Assembly: GCF_000010065.1 (NCBI RefSeq)
Contig: NC_006576.1
Span: forward strand, 2,400,001-2,432,000
DNA: 32,000 bases
Direction of reading: 5' to 3'
From: Synechococcus elongatus PCC 6301
GTDB lineage: Bacteria > Cyanobacteriota > Cyanobacteriia > Synechococcales > Synechococcaceae
Shown here: piece after piece, positions 5,564 to 17,366 of the stretch
How positions within the stretch are numbered: the stretch's first letter is position 1
How the letters are laid out: every line of letters starts with the position of its first letter
Made by a program: the position numbers and the translations under genes
The notes under the pieces: generated by a model
Database searches by the model: none
What the model was told of the DNA's origin: nothing
The model's input: only the letters and a program-made list of their open reading frames with translations

Positions 5564-6016
5564 ATGACCGAAACGCTCACTCAACTCGGCCAAATGGTTG
5601 GCCTGCCGGCTAGCCCAGAGGTTGCCGTTCTAGAAACCTTCGACAACCCCCACCCCGATCGCCAGTACCTCGTGCGGTTTGTTGCGCCGGAATTCACCTC
5701 GCTTTGCCCGCTGACAGGGCAGCCGGATTTTGCTCATTTGGTGCTCGACTACGTTCCCGATCAACGGTTGGTCGAAAGCAAGTCACTCAAGCTGTTTTTG
5801 GGCAGCTTCCGCAATCACGGTGCCTTCCACGAAAACTGTACCCTCACGATCGCCAAGCGCCTCGAAGAAGCGATGAACCCGACGTGGCTACGCTTGGGCG
5901 GTTACTGGTATCCGCGCGGTGGTTTGCCGATCGATGTCTTCTACCAATCGGGGGAACCGCCGGCTGGCGTTTGGGTACCAGAGCAAGGGGTTGCACCCTA
6001 TCGGGGTCGCGGCTGA
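5564..6016 (+). CDS. queF: NADPH-dependent 7-cyano-7-deazaguanine (preQ0) reductase, unimodular type
   Basis: Contains [14 protein letters not shown] (catalytic Cys) and [10 protein letters not shown], which matches the QueF motif E(S/L)K(S/A)hK(L/Y)(Y/F/W). ATG 5564 ([10 protein letters not shown]) is preferred over the upstream ORF-track start at 5492. Confidence 0.9.
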
Positions 6017-6825
6017 TGCCAGCGGCAACTGAGACAGTTCAGCAGGCAGCGGTAGCCGACTTTCGTTACACACCTCCACCCGCAGCAGCTACGGCTCGAC
6101 GGATTCTCGTCAAACCCAATCTGGGCTATCCGGTGGGGCCGCCTGTCACCGTGGGGATGCCGGTATTGAAAGCTGTGCTGACGGGACTGCGACAGGTTAA
6201 TCCCAGCGCCGAAATCCTGATCGTGGAAGGGGTTTGCTCACCGGTGCCTCTGTCTGAAATTGCCGATCGCTTGGGGGTGCGATCGCTCTTGGATGAGGGC
6301 ATGCAGCTTTTGGATGCTGACCAGCTGCCCCAGGCAGAATATCCCAATCGACTACCGAGCCCGACCCGCTTTGCCAGCCTTTGGGCTCCGCGGCTGCTAG
6401 CGGAAGTGGACTGCCGAATCACGGTCGGGACGCTCAAACAGACCAATCTCCAGAGCAGTCCGCTGATTTCTGCTTCGCTCAAAAATCTCTACGGACTGCT
6501 GCCGCGCGATCGCTACAAAGCGCGGAGTAGCCACTCGCGGGGACAACTGCATCGCCCTTCGGTGCCATTGGTGTTGCGCGACGTCTGGGGCTGCATTGGC
6601 CATCTGTTCGATGGGGCAGTCGTGGATGGCAGTTGGCGCTACATTAGTCCCGACTGGAAACCCGATCGCGCCAAGGCGGGTCAATGGCTCGGCCAAGTGA
6701 TCTGGGGAGAGGATCCGATCGCGGTGGACCGCCAAGCCTGTCGTGTGGCTCAGTTCGAGGAACCGGAGTATCTGCAAACCTTGGCACAGTGGCGACAAAA
6801 CCTCTTGACATGCCCCCCGTCCTAA
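6016..6825 (+). CDS. DUF362-like protein of unknown function (C-terminal codons apparently supplied by the inserted IS end)
   Basis: ATG 6016 overlaps the queF stop (TGATG). The pattern ILVKPNLG...ILIVEG...ISASLKNLYGLLP...VVDGSW resembles the DUF362 family (recognised by eye, no HMM run). The 5704..6015 part of the ORF-track entry overlaps queF in another frame and is rejected. Confidence 0.6.
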   Translation: MPAATETVQQAAVADFRYTPPPAAATARRILVKPNLGYPVGPPVTVGMPVLKAVLTGLRQVNPSAEILIVEGVCSPVPLSEIADRLGVRSLLDEGMQLLDADQLPQAEYPNRLPSPTRFASLWAPRLLAEVDCRITVGTLKQTNLQSSPLISASLKNLYGLLPRDRYKARSSHSRGQLHRPSVPLVLRDVWGCIGHLFDGAVVDGSWRYISPDWKPDRAKAGQWLGQVIWGEDPIAVDRQACRVAQFEEPEYLQTLAQWRQNLLTCPPS

Positions 6826-6967
6826 AGAACAGGGATTCAAACAGCCTCGCGGCTTGTTCTTACTGGTTCAGCGACTGCACTTACAGAAGTGGGTTGCCCT
6901 ACTTCGGCAGAGGTGCTTATCTCCCCAGTCGTTTGCTCTTGCGACCCGGTTTCGGCATGCCCTGCCG
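6785..6967 (-). ncRNA. predicted omega-RNA (reRNA) scaffold overlapping the tnpB 3' end, plus about 20 nt of flank-derived guide
   Basis: Minus-strand RNA structure seen by eye: a long-range pair of CGGCAG (about 6967-6962) with CUGCCG (about 6909-6904). A hairpin GAAGUAGGG-CAA-CCCACUUC lies at 6905..6886. AGCC-GCGA-GGCU (GNRA loop) lies at 6854..6843. The terminal hairpin CCCUGUUC-UUUA-GGACGGGG uses U-G pairs that form only on this strand. Guide candidate is GAGGTTTTGTCGCCACTGTG (6804..6785). The 5' extent is a guess. Confidence 0.45.
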
Positions 6968-8105
6968 TACCGTTGTTCCATTCCGCGCCGACGACTTCTA
7001 ACCCTCGCTTGAGGATATTGAGCGCGGCATTTTGGTCGCGGCAAATCGTTAAGCCGCAGTGTGGGCAGTCATGGGTTCTGGTCGAGAGTGACTTCTGCAC
7101 CCGATAACCGCAACCAGAGCAGTCTTGGCTGGTGTAGGCCGGATTAACCGCGACGACGACTTTTCTCCAAAGTTTGCCGTAGTAGCCCAGCCAGTGGGTG
7201 AACTGCGTCCAGCCTGCATCGTGGATGGATTTTGCTAAGTGTCGGCTGCGAACTAAGTTAGGCACCCGCAAATCTTCATAGACCACGATGTCGTTAGACA
7301 CCATTACGCGCCGTGCTTGTTCAATAGCCCAGCTTTTACGTTGGCGCTGAATTTTGAGGTGGACTTTGCCCATTCGCTGACGTTGCTTGTGGTAGTTCTT
7401 GCTCTGAGGCTTCGCTCCTTTCTTGAACCGCTTGGATAGCCGCCGTTGGGCCCGTCTGAGCCGCTTTTCTCCCTTGCGGAAAAACTTGGGACAAGCAACC
7501 TCAGCGCCATTAGAGTCCTTGGTGAAATACTTCAGCCCCAAGTCCAAGCCAATGACGTTGCCGCTGTAGACTCCAGCTTCCTGTCGTTCTACGTCCAAAC
7601 AGAACTGAGCGTAGTACCCATCAGCACGGCGCACCACCCGAACGCGGTTGATTTTGGATGACAGAATTAACTGCCGAGCAGAACCGTCCAACCACAGCTC
7701 CAACTGACCCGCCTTAAAACCGTCGGTGAACGTGATCGACATCCCATCATCCGAGAGTTTCCAGCCCGACGTTTTGTACTCCACTGAGCGGGAATGCTTT
7801 TTGAACTTGGGATAGCCCTTGTGTTTCGCGCCCTCCTTGCAACGGCGATAAAAAGACTGAATCGACTGCCAAGTCCGTTCCGCGGCTGCTTGTCGAGCCT
7901 GCGAATTCAGCAAGCCCATCCAAGGCTGCTCAGCATCTTTAGCTAAGACAGCACAGAACTTTTGCAAGTCGTTTTTGCTAACCCCAGCGTTGTCTCGCCA
8001 GTAGCGAAGACAGCGGTTGTGGACACACTGAGCCGTGCGGATTGCTGCATCGAGTTGGGCAAACTGCTCAGGGGTTCCAGCTAACTTGGCTTCACGGATT
8101 AACAT
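6837..8105 (-). CDS. tnpB: TnpB (IS605 OrfB family, RuvC-like RNA-guided endonuclease)
   Basis: 422 aa. The N-terminal pattern is LAGTPEQFAQLDAAIRTAQCVHNRCL. RuvC triad candidates are GLDLG (D), VVYEDL (E) and CRDQNAALNI (D). The zinc ribbon reads CSGCG...CPHCG. The low-complexity tail (GTAGHAETGSQEQTTGEISTSAEVG..) is typical of an ORF overlapping an RNA-coding end. Confidence 0.9.
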   Translation of the reverse strand: MLIREAKLAGTPEQFAQLDAAIRTAQCVHNRCLRYWRDNAGVSKNDLQKFCAVLAKDAEQPWMGLLNSQARQAAAERTWQSIQSFYRRCKEGAKHKGYPKFKKHSRSVEYKTSGWKLSDDGMSITFTDGFKAGQLELWLDGSARQLILSSKINRVRVVRRADGYYAQFCLDVERQEAGVYSGNVIGLDLGLKYFTKDSNGAEVACPKFFRKGEKRLRRAQRRLSKRFKKGAKPQSKNYHKQRQRMGKVHLKIQRQRKSWAIEQARRVMVSNDIVVYEDLRVPNLVRSRHLAKSIHDAGWTQFTHWLGYYGKLWRKVVVAVNPAYTSQDCSGCGYRVQKSLSTRTHDCPHCGLTICRDQNAALNILKRGLEVVGAEWNNGTAGHAETGSQEQTTGEISTSAEVGQPTSVSAVAEPVRTSREAV

Positions 8106-8110
8106 AGTCT

Positions 8111-8134
8111 TATCCTGGCATTAGTCAGGATAAA
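8111..8134. repeat. perfect 8-bp inverted repeat immediately upstream of the tnpB start
   Basis: TTATCCTG (8111-8118), 8-nt loop gcattagt, CAGGATAA (8127-8134). It lies 6 nt from the tnpB ATG (8105..8103). It could be an operator, a 5'-UTR hairpin or part of the left end. Confidence 0.6.
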
Positions 8135-8204
8135 GCTGTCCTCAAGGACGGGGCTTTAAACCCAGCGCCAAGGGTAAACTGATCCAGCGATCGCCGGAGC
8201 GGGT

Positions 8205-9572
8205 ATGGCTACTTTCTTCTCGCCGTTTCAGATTCAGCTGGGTTTGGGTGCTATCCCCCTTCAAGTCGGAGAGGCTTGCGATCGTCCCGCCCGATCGCTC
8301 ACGACCGATTCCCGCCAGATCCAACCCGGCGACATTTTTCTGGCCTTGCGGGGCGATCGCTTTGATGGCCATGACTTTGTCGCTCAAGCCCTTGCCGATG
8401 GTGCGATCGCTGCGATCGTCGATAGGGACTATCAGCCGCCCAGTGATTTAGCCGCGGGCCATCTCCTGCAAGTGGACAATACCCTTTGGGCTTATCAGGA
8501 AGTGGCGCGGCTCTGGCGACAGCGCTGTTCCTTGCCCCTGATTGGCATCACAGGATCCGTGGGCAAAACCACGACAAAAGAACTGATCGCCGCGATGCTG
8601 GCGGTGCGCGGGCCGGTGCTGAAACCGGAGGCCAACTACAACAACGAAATCGGCGTTCCCAAGACCGTTTTGCAGATCGATCCCGATCACCATTGGGCAG
8701 CCGTGCTGGAAATGGGAATGCGCGGCCGTGGTCAAATTGCCGAGCTAGCCCGCATTGCCCAGCCAAATATTGCGGTGATCACCAACGTCGGCACAGCCCA
8801 TATCGGTCTACTCGGATCCGAACAGGCGATCGCGGAAGCCAAGTGTGAACTGCTGGCGCAACTGTCCGGCACAGGGCTGGCAATTTTGAACGCTGATAAC
8901 CACCGCCTGATCGCGACGGCTCAACGGCTGAACTTACCGCGCTGTCGCACCTATGGCTTGCAGAATGGCGACTTGCAGGGTCAGCTTATTGATCTAGAAA
9001 CCTTGGTTGTTGAGGGTCAGCGCTTCCGGCTGCCGTTGCCCGGGGCTCACAACGCTCTTAACTTCCTCGCGGGTCTGGCGATCGCTCAGGAATTGGGGCT
9101 GGACTGGGAGGCTTTCCGCGACTTAAGCGTGACGCTGCCCCAAGGTCGGGCGCGGCGCATTGAACTGTCGCCGGATATCGTCCTGCTTGATGAAACCTAC
9201 AACGCGGGCTTGGAGTCGATGTTGGCAGCGCTGCAGCTTTTGGCGGATACGCCGGGCCAACGCCGGATTGCAGTGCTGGGCACGATGAAGGAATTGGGCG
9301 ATTTCAGCGAAACCTACCATCGCCAAGTTGGCGAAAAAGCGGCTGCCCTCGGTCTCGATCGCCTCTTGATCTATGCTGACCCGACAGAAGCGGCTGCCAT
9401 GCAAGCGGGAGCTTCTGCGATCGCCACGCAGATCTTCACCAACGCTGAGGATTTGCTAAGCGAGCTCCGCCAGTCTGTCCAGACGGGCGATCGCCTGCTG
9501 TTTAAAGCCTCGCGCAGTGTCGCCCTCGATCGCATCCTCGCGGACTTTGTGGCAGTCTACAGTGCTGTCTGA
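8205..9572 (+). CDS. murF: UDP-N-acetylmuramoyl-tripeptide--D-alanyl-D-alanine ligase
   Basis: Contains DSRQIQPGDIFLALRGDRFDGHDF, the Mur-ligase P-loop GITGSVGKTTTKE, and NADN/DETYNA motifs. Length is 455 aa. Confidence 0.9.
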   Translation: MATFFSPFQIQLGLGAIPLQVGEACDRPARSLTTDSRQIQPGDIFLALRGDRFDGHDFVAQALADGAIAAIVDRDYQPPSDLAAGHLLQVDNTLWAYQEVARLWRQRCSLPLIGITGSVGKTTTKELIAAMLAVRGPVLKPEANYNNEIGVPKTVLQIDPDHHWAAVLEMGMRGRGQIAELARIAQPNIAVITNVGTAHIGLLGSEQAIAEAKCELLAQLSGTGLAILNADNHRLIATAQRLNLPRCRTYGLQNGDLQGQLIDLETLVVEGQRFRLPLPGAHNALNFLAGLAIAQELGLDWEAFRDLSVTLPQGRARRIELSPDIVLLDETYNAGLESMLAALQLLADTPGQRRIAVLGTMKELGDFSETYHRQVGEKAAALGLDRLLIYADPTEAAAMQAGASAIATQIFTNAEDLLSELRQSVQTGDRLLFKASRSVALDRILADFVAVYSAV

Positions 9573-17227: not shown

Positions 17228-17339
17228 GGGTATGAAGAAACCGCTGCGGCCCAAAAGTTCTTGCGGCGCTCTGGAAAAGCATCACTTAGAATGAGGTTAG
17301 CGGAGACAAATGTTTCCGTTCACTCCTCACACCACACTT

Positions 17340-17366
17340 CGCCCGGGCAACGCTCGGGCGTTTTTT
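17340..17366 (+). terminator. rho-independent terminator in the IMPDH-family/trxA spacer
   Basis: CGCCCGGG (17340-17347), loop CAACG, CTCGGGCG (17353-17360, one G-U pair), then TTTTTT (17361-17366). It lies 146 nt after the upstream stop and 134 nt before trxA. Confidence 0.75.

Follow-up and report, generated by a model that had tools for sequence, protein, structure and literature searches.

This study concerns a tnpB gene and the DNA around it in a 32,000-nucleotide stretch of the Synechococcus elongatus PCC 6301 chromosome (contig NC_006576.1, positions 2,400,001 to 2,432,000; hereafter 'the window', in whose numbering positions are given). The gene (6837..8105, minus strand), named Synpcc7942_1842 in S. 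elongatus PCC 7942, encodes 422 amino acids and lies between two plus-strand genes – a DUF362 gene (6016..6825) and a murF-like Mur ligase gene (8205..9572), whose start is 32 nt from the left end of the element described here. We conclude, with a probability of about 0.9, that positions 6805..8173 (minus strand, 1369 bp) are one non-autonomous insertion sequence of the IS200/IS605 family and IS1341 (tnpB-only) type, which carries TnpB and a guide RNA in the S. elongatus chromosome.

TnpB and the boundaries of the element

The encoded protein is 100% identical to BAD80442.1 of PCC 6301 and differs at two residues from ABB57872.1, the Synpcc7942_1842 product of PCC 7942. It matches the Pfam domains OrfB_IS605 and Cas12f1-like_TNB and the NCBIfam model guided_TnpB (255 bits), and its RefSeq name is already 'RNA-guided endonuclease InsQ/TnpB family protein'. 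The best natural match among solved structures is ISDra2 TnpB (phmmer E = 7e-38, 133.6 bits, residues 31-382). A first-pass annotation, made from the nucleotide sequence without database searches, had described a 422-residue OrfB/TnpB with three RuvC acidic motifs and a CxxC zinc ribbon, and the domain searches and the alignment to ISDra2 bear this out. The RuvC-I aspartate D188 (GLDLG; 7542..7544), the RuvC-II glutamate E277 (YEDL; 7275..7277) and the RuvC-III aspartate D357 (RDQNAALNI; 7035..7037), all on the minus strand, align with ISDra2 D191, E278 and D361, respectively. Both CxxC pairs of the zinc ribbon (C329-x2-C332 and C347-x2-C350; 7056..7121, minus strand; Cas12f1-like_TNB at residues 299-364) likewise align with those of ISDra2. 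The protein thus has the D-E-D RuvC triad and the zinc ribbon of a TnpB.

No transposase accompanies it. tnpB is the sole gene between the mapped ends and, as the first-pass annotation had noted, no Y1 (HUH) transposase open reading frame (ORF) lies on either side, where the neighbors are the murF-like and DUF362 genes. A Pfam search of the ORFs in the 32-kb window detected no Y1 transposase, the ten small or unassigned ORFs included. Most tnpB genes in nature lack an adjacent gene for this transposase (tnpA). The only transposase gene named in PCC 7942 by a 2011 genome study is Synpcc7942_1842 (PMC3025956), and we found no census of insertion sequences or tnpA in the literature on S. elongatus. 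Because tnpA is missing from the element and the window, and the only named PCC 7942 transposase is tnpB itself, the copy is most likely immobile and vertically inherited. Movement would need a Y1 TnpA supplied in trans.

We located the ends of the element by comparison with its relatives. A scan of one genome per species yielded 80 related loci, nearly all cyanobacterial and mostly with 55-66% protein identity, among which a left-end core was detectable in 35 and a right end in 69. In 35 of 35 loci the core lies directly upstream of tnpB, and the shared layout is TTAC, then 9-10 nt, then GGGTYTAAAGCCCCGYCC-loop-GGACGGCTTT, with TTAC at that distance in 33. The core GGGTYTAAAGCCCCGYCC, conserved across the 35 loci, occurs once in the window. 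Here the left end (8106..8173, minus strand) contains the conserved GGGTTTAAAGCCCC motif, an imperfect hairpin and a GATAAG motif before the ATG; reading the sequence also reveals a -10-like CAGGAT 6 nt before the tnpB ATG. The hairpin, CCCCGTCC-TTGA-GGACAG (8136..8153, minus strand), has one C.A mismatch relative to the family consensus stem CCGTCC/GGACGG. Its core, GTCC-TTGA-GGAC (8149..8138), lies 24 nt from TTAC (8177..8174), in agreement with the earlier prediction of a related hairpin close to a TTAC.

The right ends of the relatives were located through an ATGTCAA motif. The 69 distinct ends have GGGGAGTATGTCAA in common and follow the layout ...GAATC-stem-loop-stem-AGTATGTCAA; conservation is 1.4-2.0 bits per position at the six positions upstream of ATGTCAA and about 0.1 bits per position right after TCAA. 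TCAA forms the last four bases of the right end (6805..6808, minus strand) in all 69, and nothing is conserved past it. In a copy with 87% protein identity at an unrelated site (L084), similarity to the window stops at 6806. The terminal hairpin that the first-pass annotation placed 10 nt before TCAA is indeed there (6814..6835, minus strand). It has the core GTTC-TTTA-GGAC (6830..6819) and a 9-bp stem (6835..6827 with 6822..6814) that covaries in the family, with three G.U pairs and a UUUA loop in the RNA. The left-end and right-end hairpin cores are related (GTCC-TTGA-GGAC versus GTTC-TTTA-GGAC). We considered the inverted repeat between the two ends as a pair of terminal inverted repeats and rejected it, as each arm is itself a palindromic hairpin. 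The element therefore has a TCAA right end with a subterminal imperfect hairpin, a related left-end hairpin and no terminal inverted repeats.

Empty sites fix the boundaries further. In S. elongatus IITB7 (CP143859.1) and in a metagenome contig, queF-DUF362-murF is uninterrupted between DUF362 and murF, and the junction in these sequences (L086 and L087) reads ...CCTCGGC|GTAAACTAATCCAGCGATCGCC, which puts the TTAC of the tnpB strand right at the junction. Joining the window flanks gives ...AACCTC|GTAAACTGATCCAGCGATCGCC and restores the DUF362 frame, which then ends ...QNLVN*. The element accordingly inserted 3' of TTAC in the last DUF362 codons and produced no target-site duplication, although a 3-nt difference remains at the right-end side. 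The three bases are a GGC glycine codon adjoining the right-end point (6804/6805), present in both empty-site strains (L086 3286..3296, and L087) and absent from all element-bearing strains. The occupied DUF362 allele takes its last six codons (LTCPPS) and TAA stop from the right-end hairpin of the element.

These comparisons place TTAC (8174..8177, minus strand; GTAA on the plus strand) just outside the left end, as target DNA. An element of about 1370 bp at 6805..8174 had been proposed; the right end at 6805 holds and the left end moves to 8173, because TTAC is target DNA outside the element. The accompanying suggestion that the transposon-associated motif (TAM) resembles TTAC agrees with its presence in 33 of 35 relatives and at the IITB7 empty-site junction.

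The same end structure is known from IS608 of Helicobacter pylori, which inserts 3' of TTAC without target duplication, ends in TCAA, and has subterminal imperfect hairpins and no inverted repeats. All four of these end features are seen in the S. elongatus element, but IS608 encodes its own Y1 transposase TnpA and the S. elongatus element does not. Searches of the 32-kb window with the left-end core, the right-end motif and the covariance model described below detected no further copies, and the PCC 7942 protein occupies one genomic place in all 24 contigs examined. Among the relatives, five TnpBs that are 64-65% identical to the window protein are named as Chloracidobacterium (Acidobacteria), and one locus with 62% identity (L068) is in a genome bin labelled Rhizobium. 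These matches reflect either a spread of this cyanobacterial TnpB family across phyla or binning contamination.

An omega RNA at the 3' end of tnpB

The first-pass annotation had proposed a guide RNA (omega RNA) at the 3' end of tnpB. Comparative analysis supports this and places a 172-nt scaffold at 6805..6976 (minus strand), which consists of the last 140 nt of tnpB, including the stop codon, and the 32-nt right end. We aligned 64 sequences from the RuvC-III codon to TCAA. RNAalifold predicted 40 pairs, 28 of which have compensatory double changes. Pairs 1-3/302-304 and 24-26/33-35 were dropped, being invariant or varying on one side only in coding sequence. Across the 34 retained pairs, which form nine helices, 97.6% of cells are standard-paired, versus 31-49% when partners are slid by 1-3 columns; double-change cells number 427, versus 21-82 when slid, and none of 500 shuffles reached any of the observed measures. 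The window copy retains 32 of the 34 consensus pairs.

Rfam at its gathering thresholds returned no family for the region; HgcC (RF00062) matched on the correct strand at 6792..6927 with 13.3 bits, far below its threshold of 50. As no curated omega-RNA family exists for this clade, we built a covariance model (R1) from 60 relatives, leaving out all S. elongatus sequences and their two closest relatives. A covariance-model scan of the right end was among the checks that the first-pass annotation had called for, and R1 produced a full-length match at 6805..6976 (minus strand; 115.8 bits, E = 3.9e-26) that ends exactly at TCAA and is the sole match in the window.

The annotation had further claimed that the region folds on the tnpB-sense strand only. 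The fold of 6785..6975 reaches -71.9 kcal/mol (z = -2.9) on that strand versus -56.4 kcal/mol (z = -0.3) on the opposite one, and pairing in the window copy works on the sense strand only because it needs G.U pairs. A structured sense-strand RNA thus spans the tnpB 3' end and the right end and stops at the element boundary.

One could instead suppose that the hairpins are DNA structures for transposase recognition, and that RNA structure in the tnpB 3' end is a side effect of its coding for protein. Subterminal DNA hairpins are indeed present at IS200/IS605 ends, and the two hairpin cores are related here. However, the terminal hairpin is preceded by seven additional helices, each with pairs that show compensatory changes, the pairing in the window copy depends on G.U, and a published transcript covers the region with enrichment at its 3' end (see below). 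In the relatives, moreover, nucleotide conservation runs across stop codons of variable position. We regard a DNA-only explanation as very improbable, and prefer the reading that the element encodes an omega RNA.

In most relatives tnpB stops far short of the right end, some 60-75 codons past the RuvC-III motif, and the nucleotides are conserved there. Because nucleotides are conserved across varying stops, the C-terminal 'tail' of these proteins is largely translated RNA gene. Members of the S. elongatus subgroup keep the frame open across most of the RNA gene, which adds roughly 55 residues that are probably not a folded protein domain. An extra hairpin, ACAAGCC-GCGA-GGCUGUU with G.U pairs (6838..6861, minus strand), separates the main body of the omega RNA from its terminal hairpin and is handled by the covariance model as an 18-nt insertion. 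It is confined to a subgroup of the family, namely S. elongatus and the loci L002, L004, L010, L075 and L084 (the 87%-identical copy).

Published RNA sequencing (RNA-seq) data from PCC 7942 document transcription of this region. A PCC 7942-type contig (L085) aligns with the window without gaps over 4269 nt, with eight differences, and coordinates were mapped accordingly. Vijayan et al. 2011 (PMC3219970, Table S1) report transcript 336, Synpcc7942_1842, at CP000100 1908945..1910261 on the plus strand, with a 5' untranslated region (UTR) of 0 nt, a 3' UTR of 48 nt and a mean coverage of 108.6. The mean coverage of the ORF is 78.5 (Table S5) and that of the neighboring genes 3.5-7 (PMC3219970), such that the locus is transcribed about 20x above its neighbors. 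The right end finishes at CP000100 1910245 and the transcript stops 16 nt past TCAA, at window 6789; the 48-nt 3' UTR therefore equals the 32-nt right end and 16 nt of flank. Combining the transcript and ORF means gives about 905 reads/nt over the last 48 nt, about 11x the ORF mean. This excess is as expected of a stable 3'-end RNA. A promoter and terminator scan of 6600..8400 returned neither, and because no intrinsic terminator was found, processing or protection is a likelier cause of the transcript 3' end than termination. The supplements of a UTEX 2973 primary transcriptome hold no entry for the tnpB gene.

The RNA is thus expressed and reaches about 16 nt into the flank. The guide segment GAGGTTTTGTCGCCAC (6789..6804, minus strand) is flank DNA, bounded by TCAA on one side and by the published transcript 3' end (CP000100:1910261) on the other. 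A guide at 6804..6785 had been proposed; its start at 6804 stands, and the transcript end makes 16 nt (6804..6789) more likely than 20. ISDra2 TnpB also uses a guide of 16 nt.

By analogy with ISDra2 and Geobacillus TnpB, the S. elongatus TnpB would bind the transcript of its own gene and trim it to an omega RNA of about 188 nt (the 172-nt scaffold and the 16-nt guide). The resulting complex would cut double-stranded DNA that carries TTAC and the guide sequence – which is what would remain after excision or replacement of the element – and the cut would force repair from an element-bearing copy.

History of the copy and forces acting on it

A sister S. elongatus lineage (WP_126147766.1; L081-L083) has the element in the same position, and its sequence aligns with the window without gaps over 9269 nt at 97.7% identity. 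The insertion therefore predates the split of the two element-bearing lineages. In IITB7, which lacks it, the flanking genes are 85-88% identical to the window; either the element is younger than the IITB7 split or it was lost precisely in the IITB7 lineage.

Divergence between the window and the sister lineage (L081) is a mosaic. Over a background of about 1%, a block of 13-15% covers queF/DUF362 (5640..6730) and ends about 75 nt before the right end, and a patch of 11.5% lies inside tnpB (7237..7436, about 200 nt, codons 224-290). This pattern suggests homologous exchange or gene conversion. Of the eight single-base differences between the PCC 7942-type contig and the window (6192..8625), four fall in tnpB, where 7371 and 7186 change amino acids, 6876 is synonymous, and 6945 is synonymous and breaks an omega-RNA pair.

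The tnpB genes of the two element-bearing lineages differ by 18 non-synonymous and 25 synonymous changes, a ratio of non-synonymous to synonymous rates (dN/dS) of 0.20 that departs from neutrality (binomial P = 7e-7). The omega RNA also shows signs of selection within S. elongatus: over the 192 nt of scaffold and guide, one G-C to C-G pair swap and its adjoining tetraloop are all that distinguishes the PCC 7942 type from the sister lineage.

Several observations weigh against our reading of 6805..8173 as a tnpB-only element with TnpB and guide RNA. The evidence that tnpA is lacking comes from the window and from the mobility genes listed in one paper, and the published RNA-seq gives a transcript end and coverage and does not resolve a discrete small RNA. 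The window, which is of the PCC 6301 type, breaks at 6945 one omega-RNA pair that PCC 7942 keeps. Nor did a scan of metagenome and viral contigs for TTAC and the first 14 nt of the guide reveal a natural target: the 13 metagenome matches lie in unrelated context, as expected by chance, and viral matches number 0. Relative to the guide, the known empty sites have a 3-nt indel and additional substitutions; because the element-bearing strains lack GGC, the present guide matches no known element-free allele.

Further points concern the protein. Of the 161 positions with at least 95% conservation among 118 relatives, it deviates at 8. Three of the changes – R29H, D258S and K262E, at positions conserved in at least 96% of the 118 – are derived on the PCC 7942/6301 branch. 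Codons 258-262 (7320..7334, minus strand) read S-W-A-I-E here, where 96-97% of relatives and ISDra2 have D...K; the equivalents in ISDra2 are D259 and K263, the latter of which hydrogen-bonds a G:C pair of the omega-RNA pseudoknot (PMC10097598). With E262 for lysine and S258 for aspartate, the conserved pseudoknot contacts are not preserved in the window protein; the sister lineage (WP_126147766.1) keeps both D258 and K262. The first-pass annotation had called the TnpB 'apparently intact', and this holds for the catalytic triad only, because other deeply conserved positions have changed in this lineage. We treat the pseudoknot-contact substitutions as a caution on activity and not as a family-defining feature. 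Because substitutions including K262E sit at deeply conserved TnpB positions in this lineage, nuclease activity of the PCC 7942/6301 allele is only putative.

Parsimony assigns 8 non-synonymous and 5 synonymous changes to the PCC 7942/6301 branch, not distinguishable from neutral (P = 0.16), and 3 non-synonymous and 12 synonymous changes outside the RNA hairpin to the sister branch (Fisher P = 0.051 for the comparison). The left-end stem has a different single mismatch in each lineage (C.A in the window, CCATCC in L081). In the right-end stem, two C-to-T changes relative to the family consensus give U.G pairs in RNA and G.T mismatches in DNA.

Such features would be expected of a decaying relic – a stranded, immobile copy whose RNA is still made while TnpB is losing or has lost nuclease activity or RNA binding, and whose ORF is intact only because too little time has passed. 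In favor of decay, the present branch ratio is not distinguishable from neutral, K262E and D258S strike deeply conserved positions, each lineage has its own disruptive left-end hairpin mutation, the right-end stem is mismatched as DNA, and the guide has no target among the metagenome and viral contigs; Synpcc7942_1842 is also classed as non-essential in a compilation from published transposon-library data. Set against this, the triad and zinc ribbon are intact, dN/dS is low overall, the locus is highly expressed, and the omega-RNA fold is kept even through a compensatory pair swap within the species. The branch counts are also small and are not independent events, because the 7237..7436 patch in which the changes cluster looks like gene conversion. 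We consider decay a possible, though not the favored, account of the present state of the copy.

Transcription across the right end raises a different possibility. The convergent DUF362-queF transcript ends 35 nt inside the element (Vijayan 2011, PMC3219970). It overlaps the tnpB/omega transcript by about 72 nt (window 6789..6860; CP000100 1910190..1910261), and the 16-nt guide has perfect antisense complementarity to the final native DUF362 codons. In PCC 7942 the tnpB transcript is about 25x as abundant as the convergent one.

The locus might persist for a function beyond transposition, as an anti-replacement device or by host co-option. Under the former, in a naturally transformable species, TnpB-omega RNA would cut incoming or recombinant element-free alleles. 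Under the latter, the DUF362-queF operon would be regulated by the abundant RNA, which through its guide and right end is antisense to the 3' end of the convergent mRNA. The presence of one copy at one site in two lineages under purifying selection, despite no tnpA known in the genome, would fit such retention, as would the roughly 20-fold expression over neighbors, the overlapping transcripts, the preservation of RNA pairing while the DNA hairpins erode, and the frequent homologous exchange around the locus indicated by mosaic divergence. But the gene is classed as non-essential, its RuvC site is intact unlike that of known domesticated TnpB repressors, and no matching element-free allele appears among the known empty sites or the metagenome and viral contigs. 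All of these features are also expected of an ordinary young-to-middle-aged IS1341-type copy. We consider retention for a further function unlikely. We are similarly doubtful that the TnpB-omega RNA locus is kept under purifying selection as a transposition-free, self-preserving drive or as an antisense regulator of DUF362-queF, and favor the reading of 6805..8173 as a non-autonomous IS1341-type insertion sequence.

Elsewhere in the window, the cyanobacterial small RNA Yfr1 lies at 17300..17362 (plus strand; Rfam RF01116, 62 bits versus a threshold of 38), the only above-threshold Rfam match. A non-coding transcript in the corresponding PCC 7942 region is flagged 'contains Yfr1' by Vijayan Table S2 (PMC3219970).

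Relation to known systems and significance

The element most resembles ISDra2 of Deinococcus radiodurans in its nuclease and guide RNA. The two TnpBs (ISDra2 TnpB: PDB 8EXA, 8H1J) share domain order, the D-E-D RuvC triad and the zinc ribbon, and both systems draw a guide RNA from the tnpB 3' end and the right end, with about 16 nt of flank as the guide. The differences are several. The TAM of ISDra2 is TTGAT, whereas that of the S. elongatus element is TTAC; ISDra2 has a tnpA and the S. elongatus element has none. The protein match is distant (133.6 bits), and the S. elongatus scaffold is somewhat longer (172 nt), with an extra, subfamily-specific hairpin. The equivalent of K263 is glutamate in the S. 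elongatus protein, whose activity is predicted from sequence. The last three bases of the scaffold, C-A-A, correspond to -3C, -2A and -1A of the ISDra2 pseudoknot region (PMC10097598).

A second likeness is to the sotRNAs of IS1341-type elements, sense RNAs that overlap the tnpB 3' end, with a UUCA tetraloop in the right-end hairpin and with HgcC tied to IS1341 right ends (PMC4615843). Archaeal sotRNAs and HgcC were described before the guide-RNA function was known. The S. elongatus element is likewise tnpB-only, and most of its relatives have the TTCA loop; its own loop is UUUA and, as noted, its RF00062 match is far below threshold.

TldRs, TnpB-like RNA-guided repressors associated with particular host genes, are nuclease-dead and have lost RuvC catalytic residues. 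The S. elongatus locus resembles them in that one TnpB-family gene, with its guide RNA, is fixed at a single place in the chromosome outside an active transposon context. It differs in that its triad is intact, both of its ends are recognizable and its guide is mere insertion flank. We examined a TldR-type domesticated TnpB as a candidate and rejected it, as the RuvC triad and both transposon ends are kept.

The element is an ordinary member of the thoroughly known IS1341 type, already annotated as TnpB, and establishes no new principle. It stands out only as a single, old, well-expressed copy in a model cyanobacterium. S. elongatus PCC 7942/6301 is genetically tractable and naturally transformable, and with the ends, TAM, scaffold and 16-nt guide mapped, the locus offers a clean setting in which to study the role of TnpB-omega RNA once transposition is lost. 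The natural allele pair S258/E262 versus D258/K262 provides a ready structure-function comparison, and the locus would allow a test of whether an endogenous miniature RNA-guided nuclease can be reprogrammed for editing in its own host.

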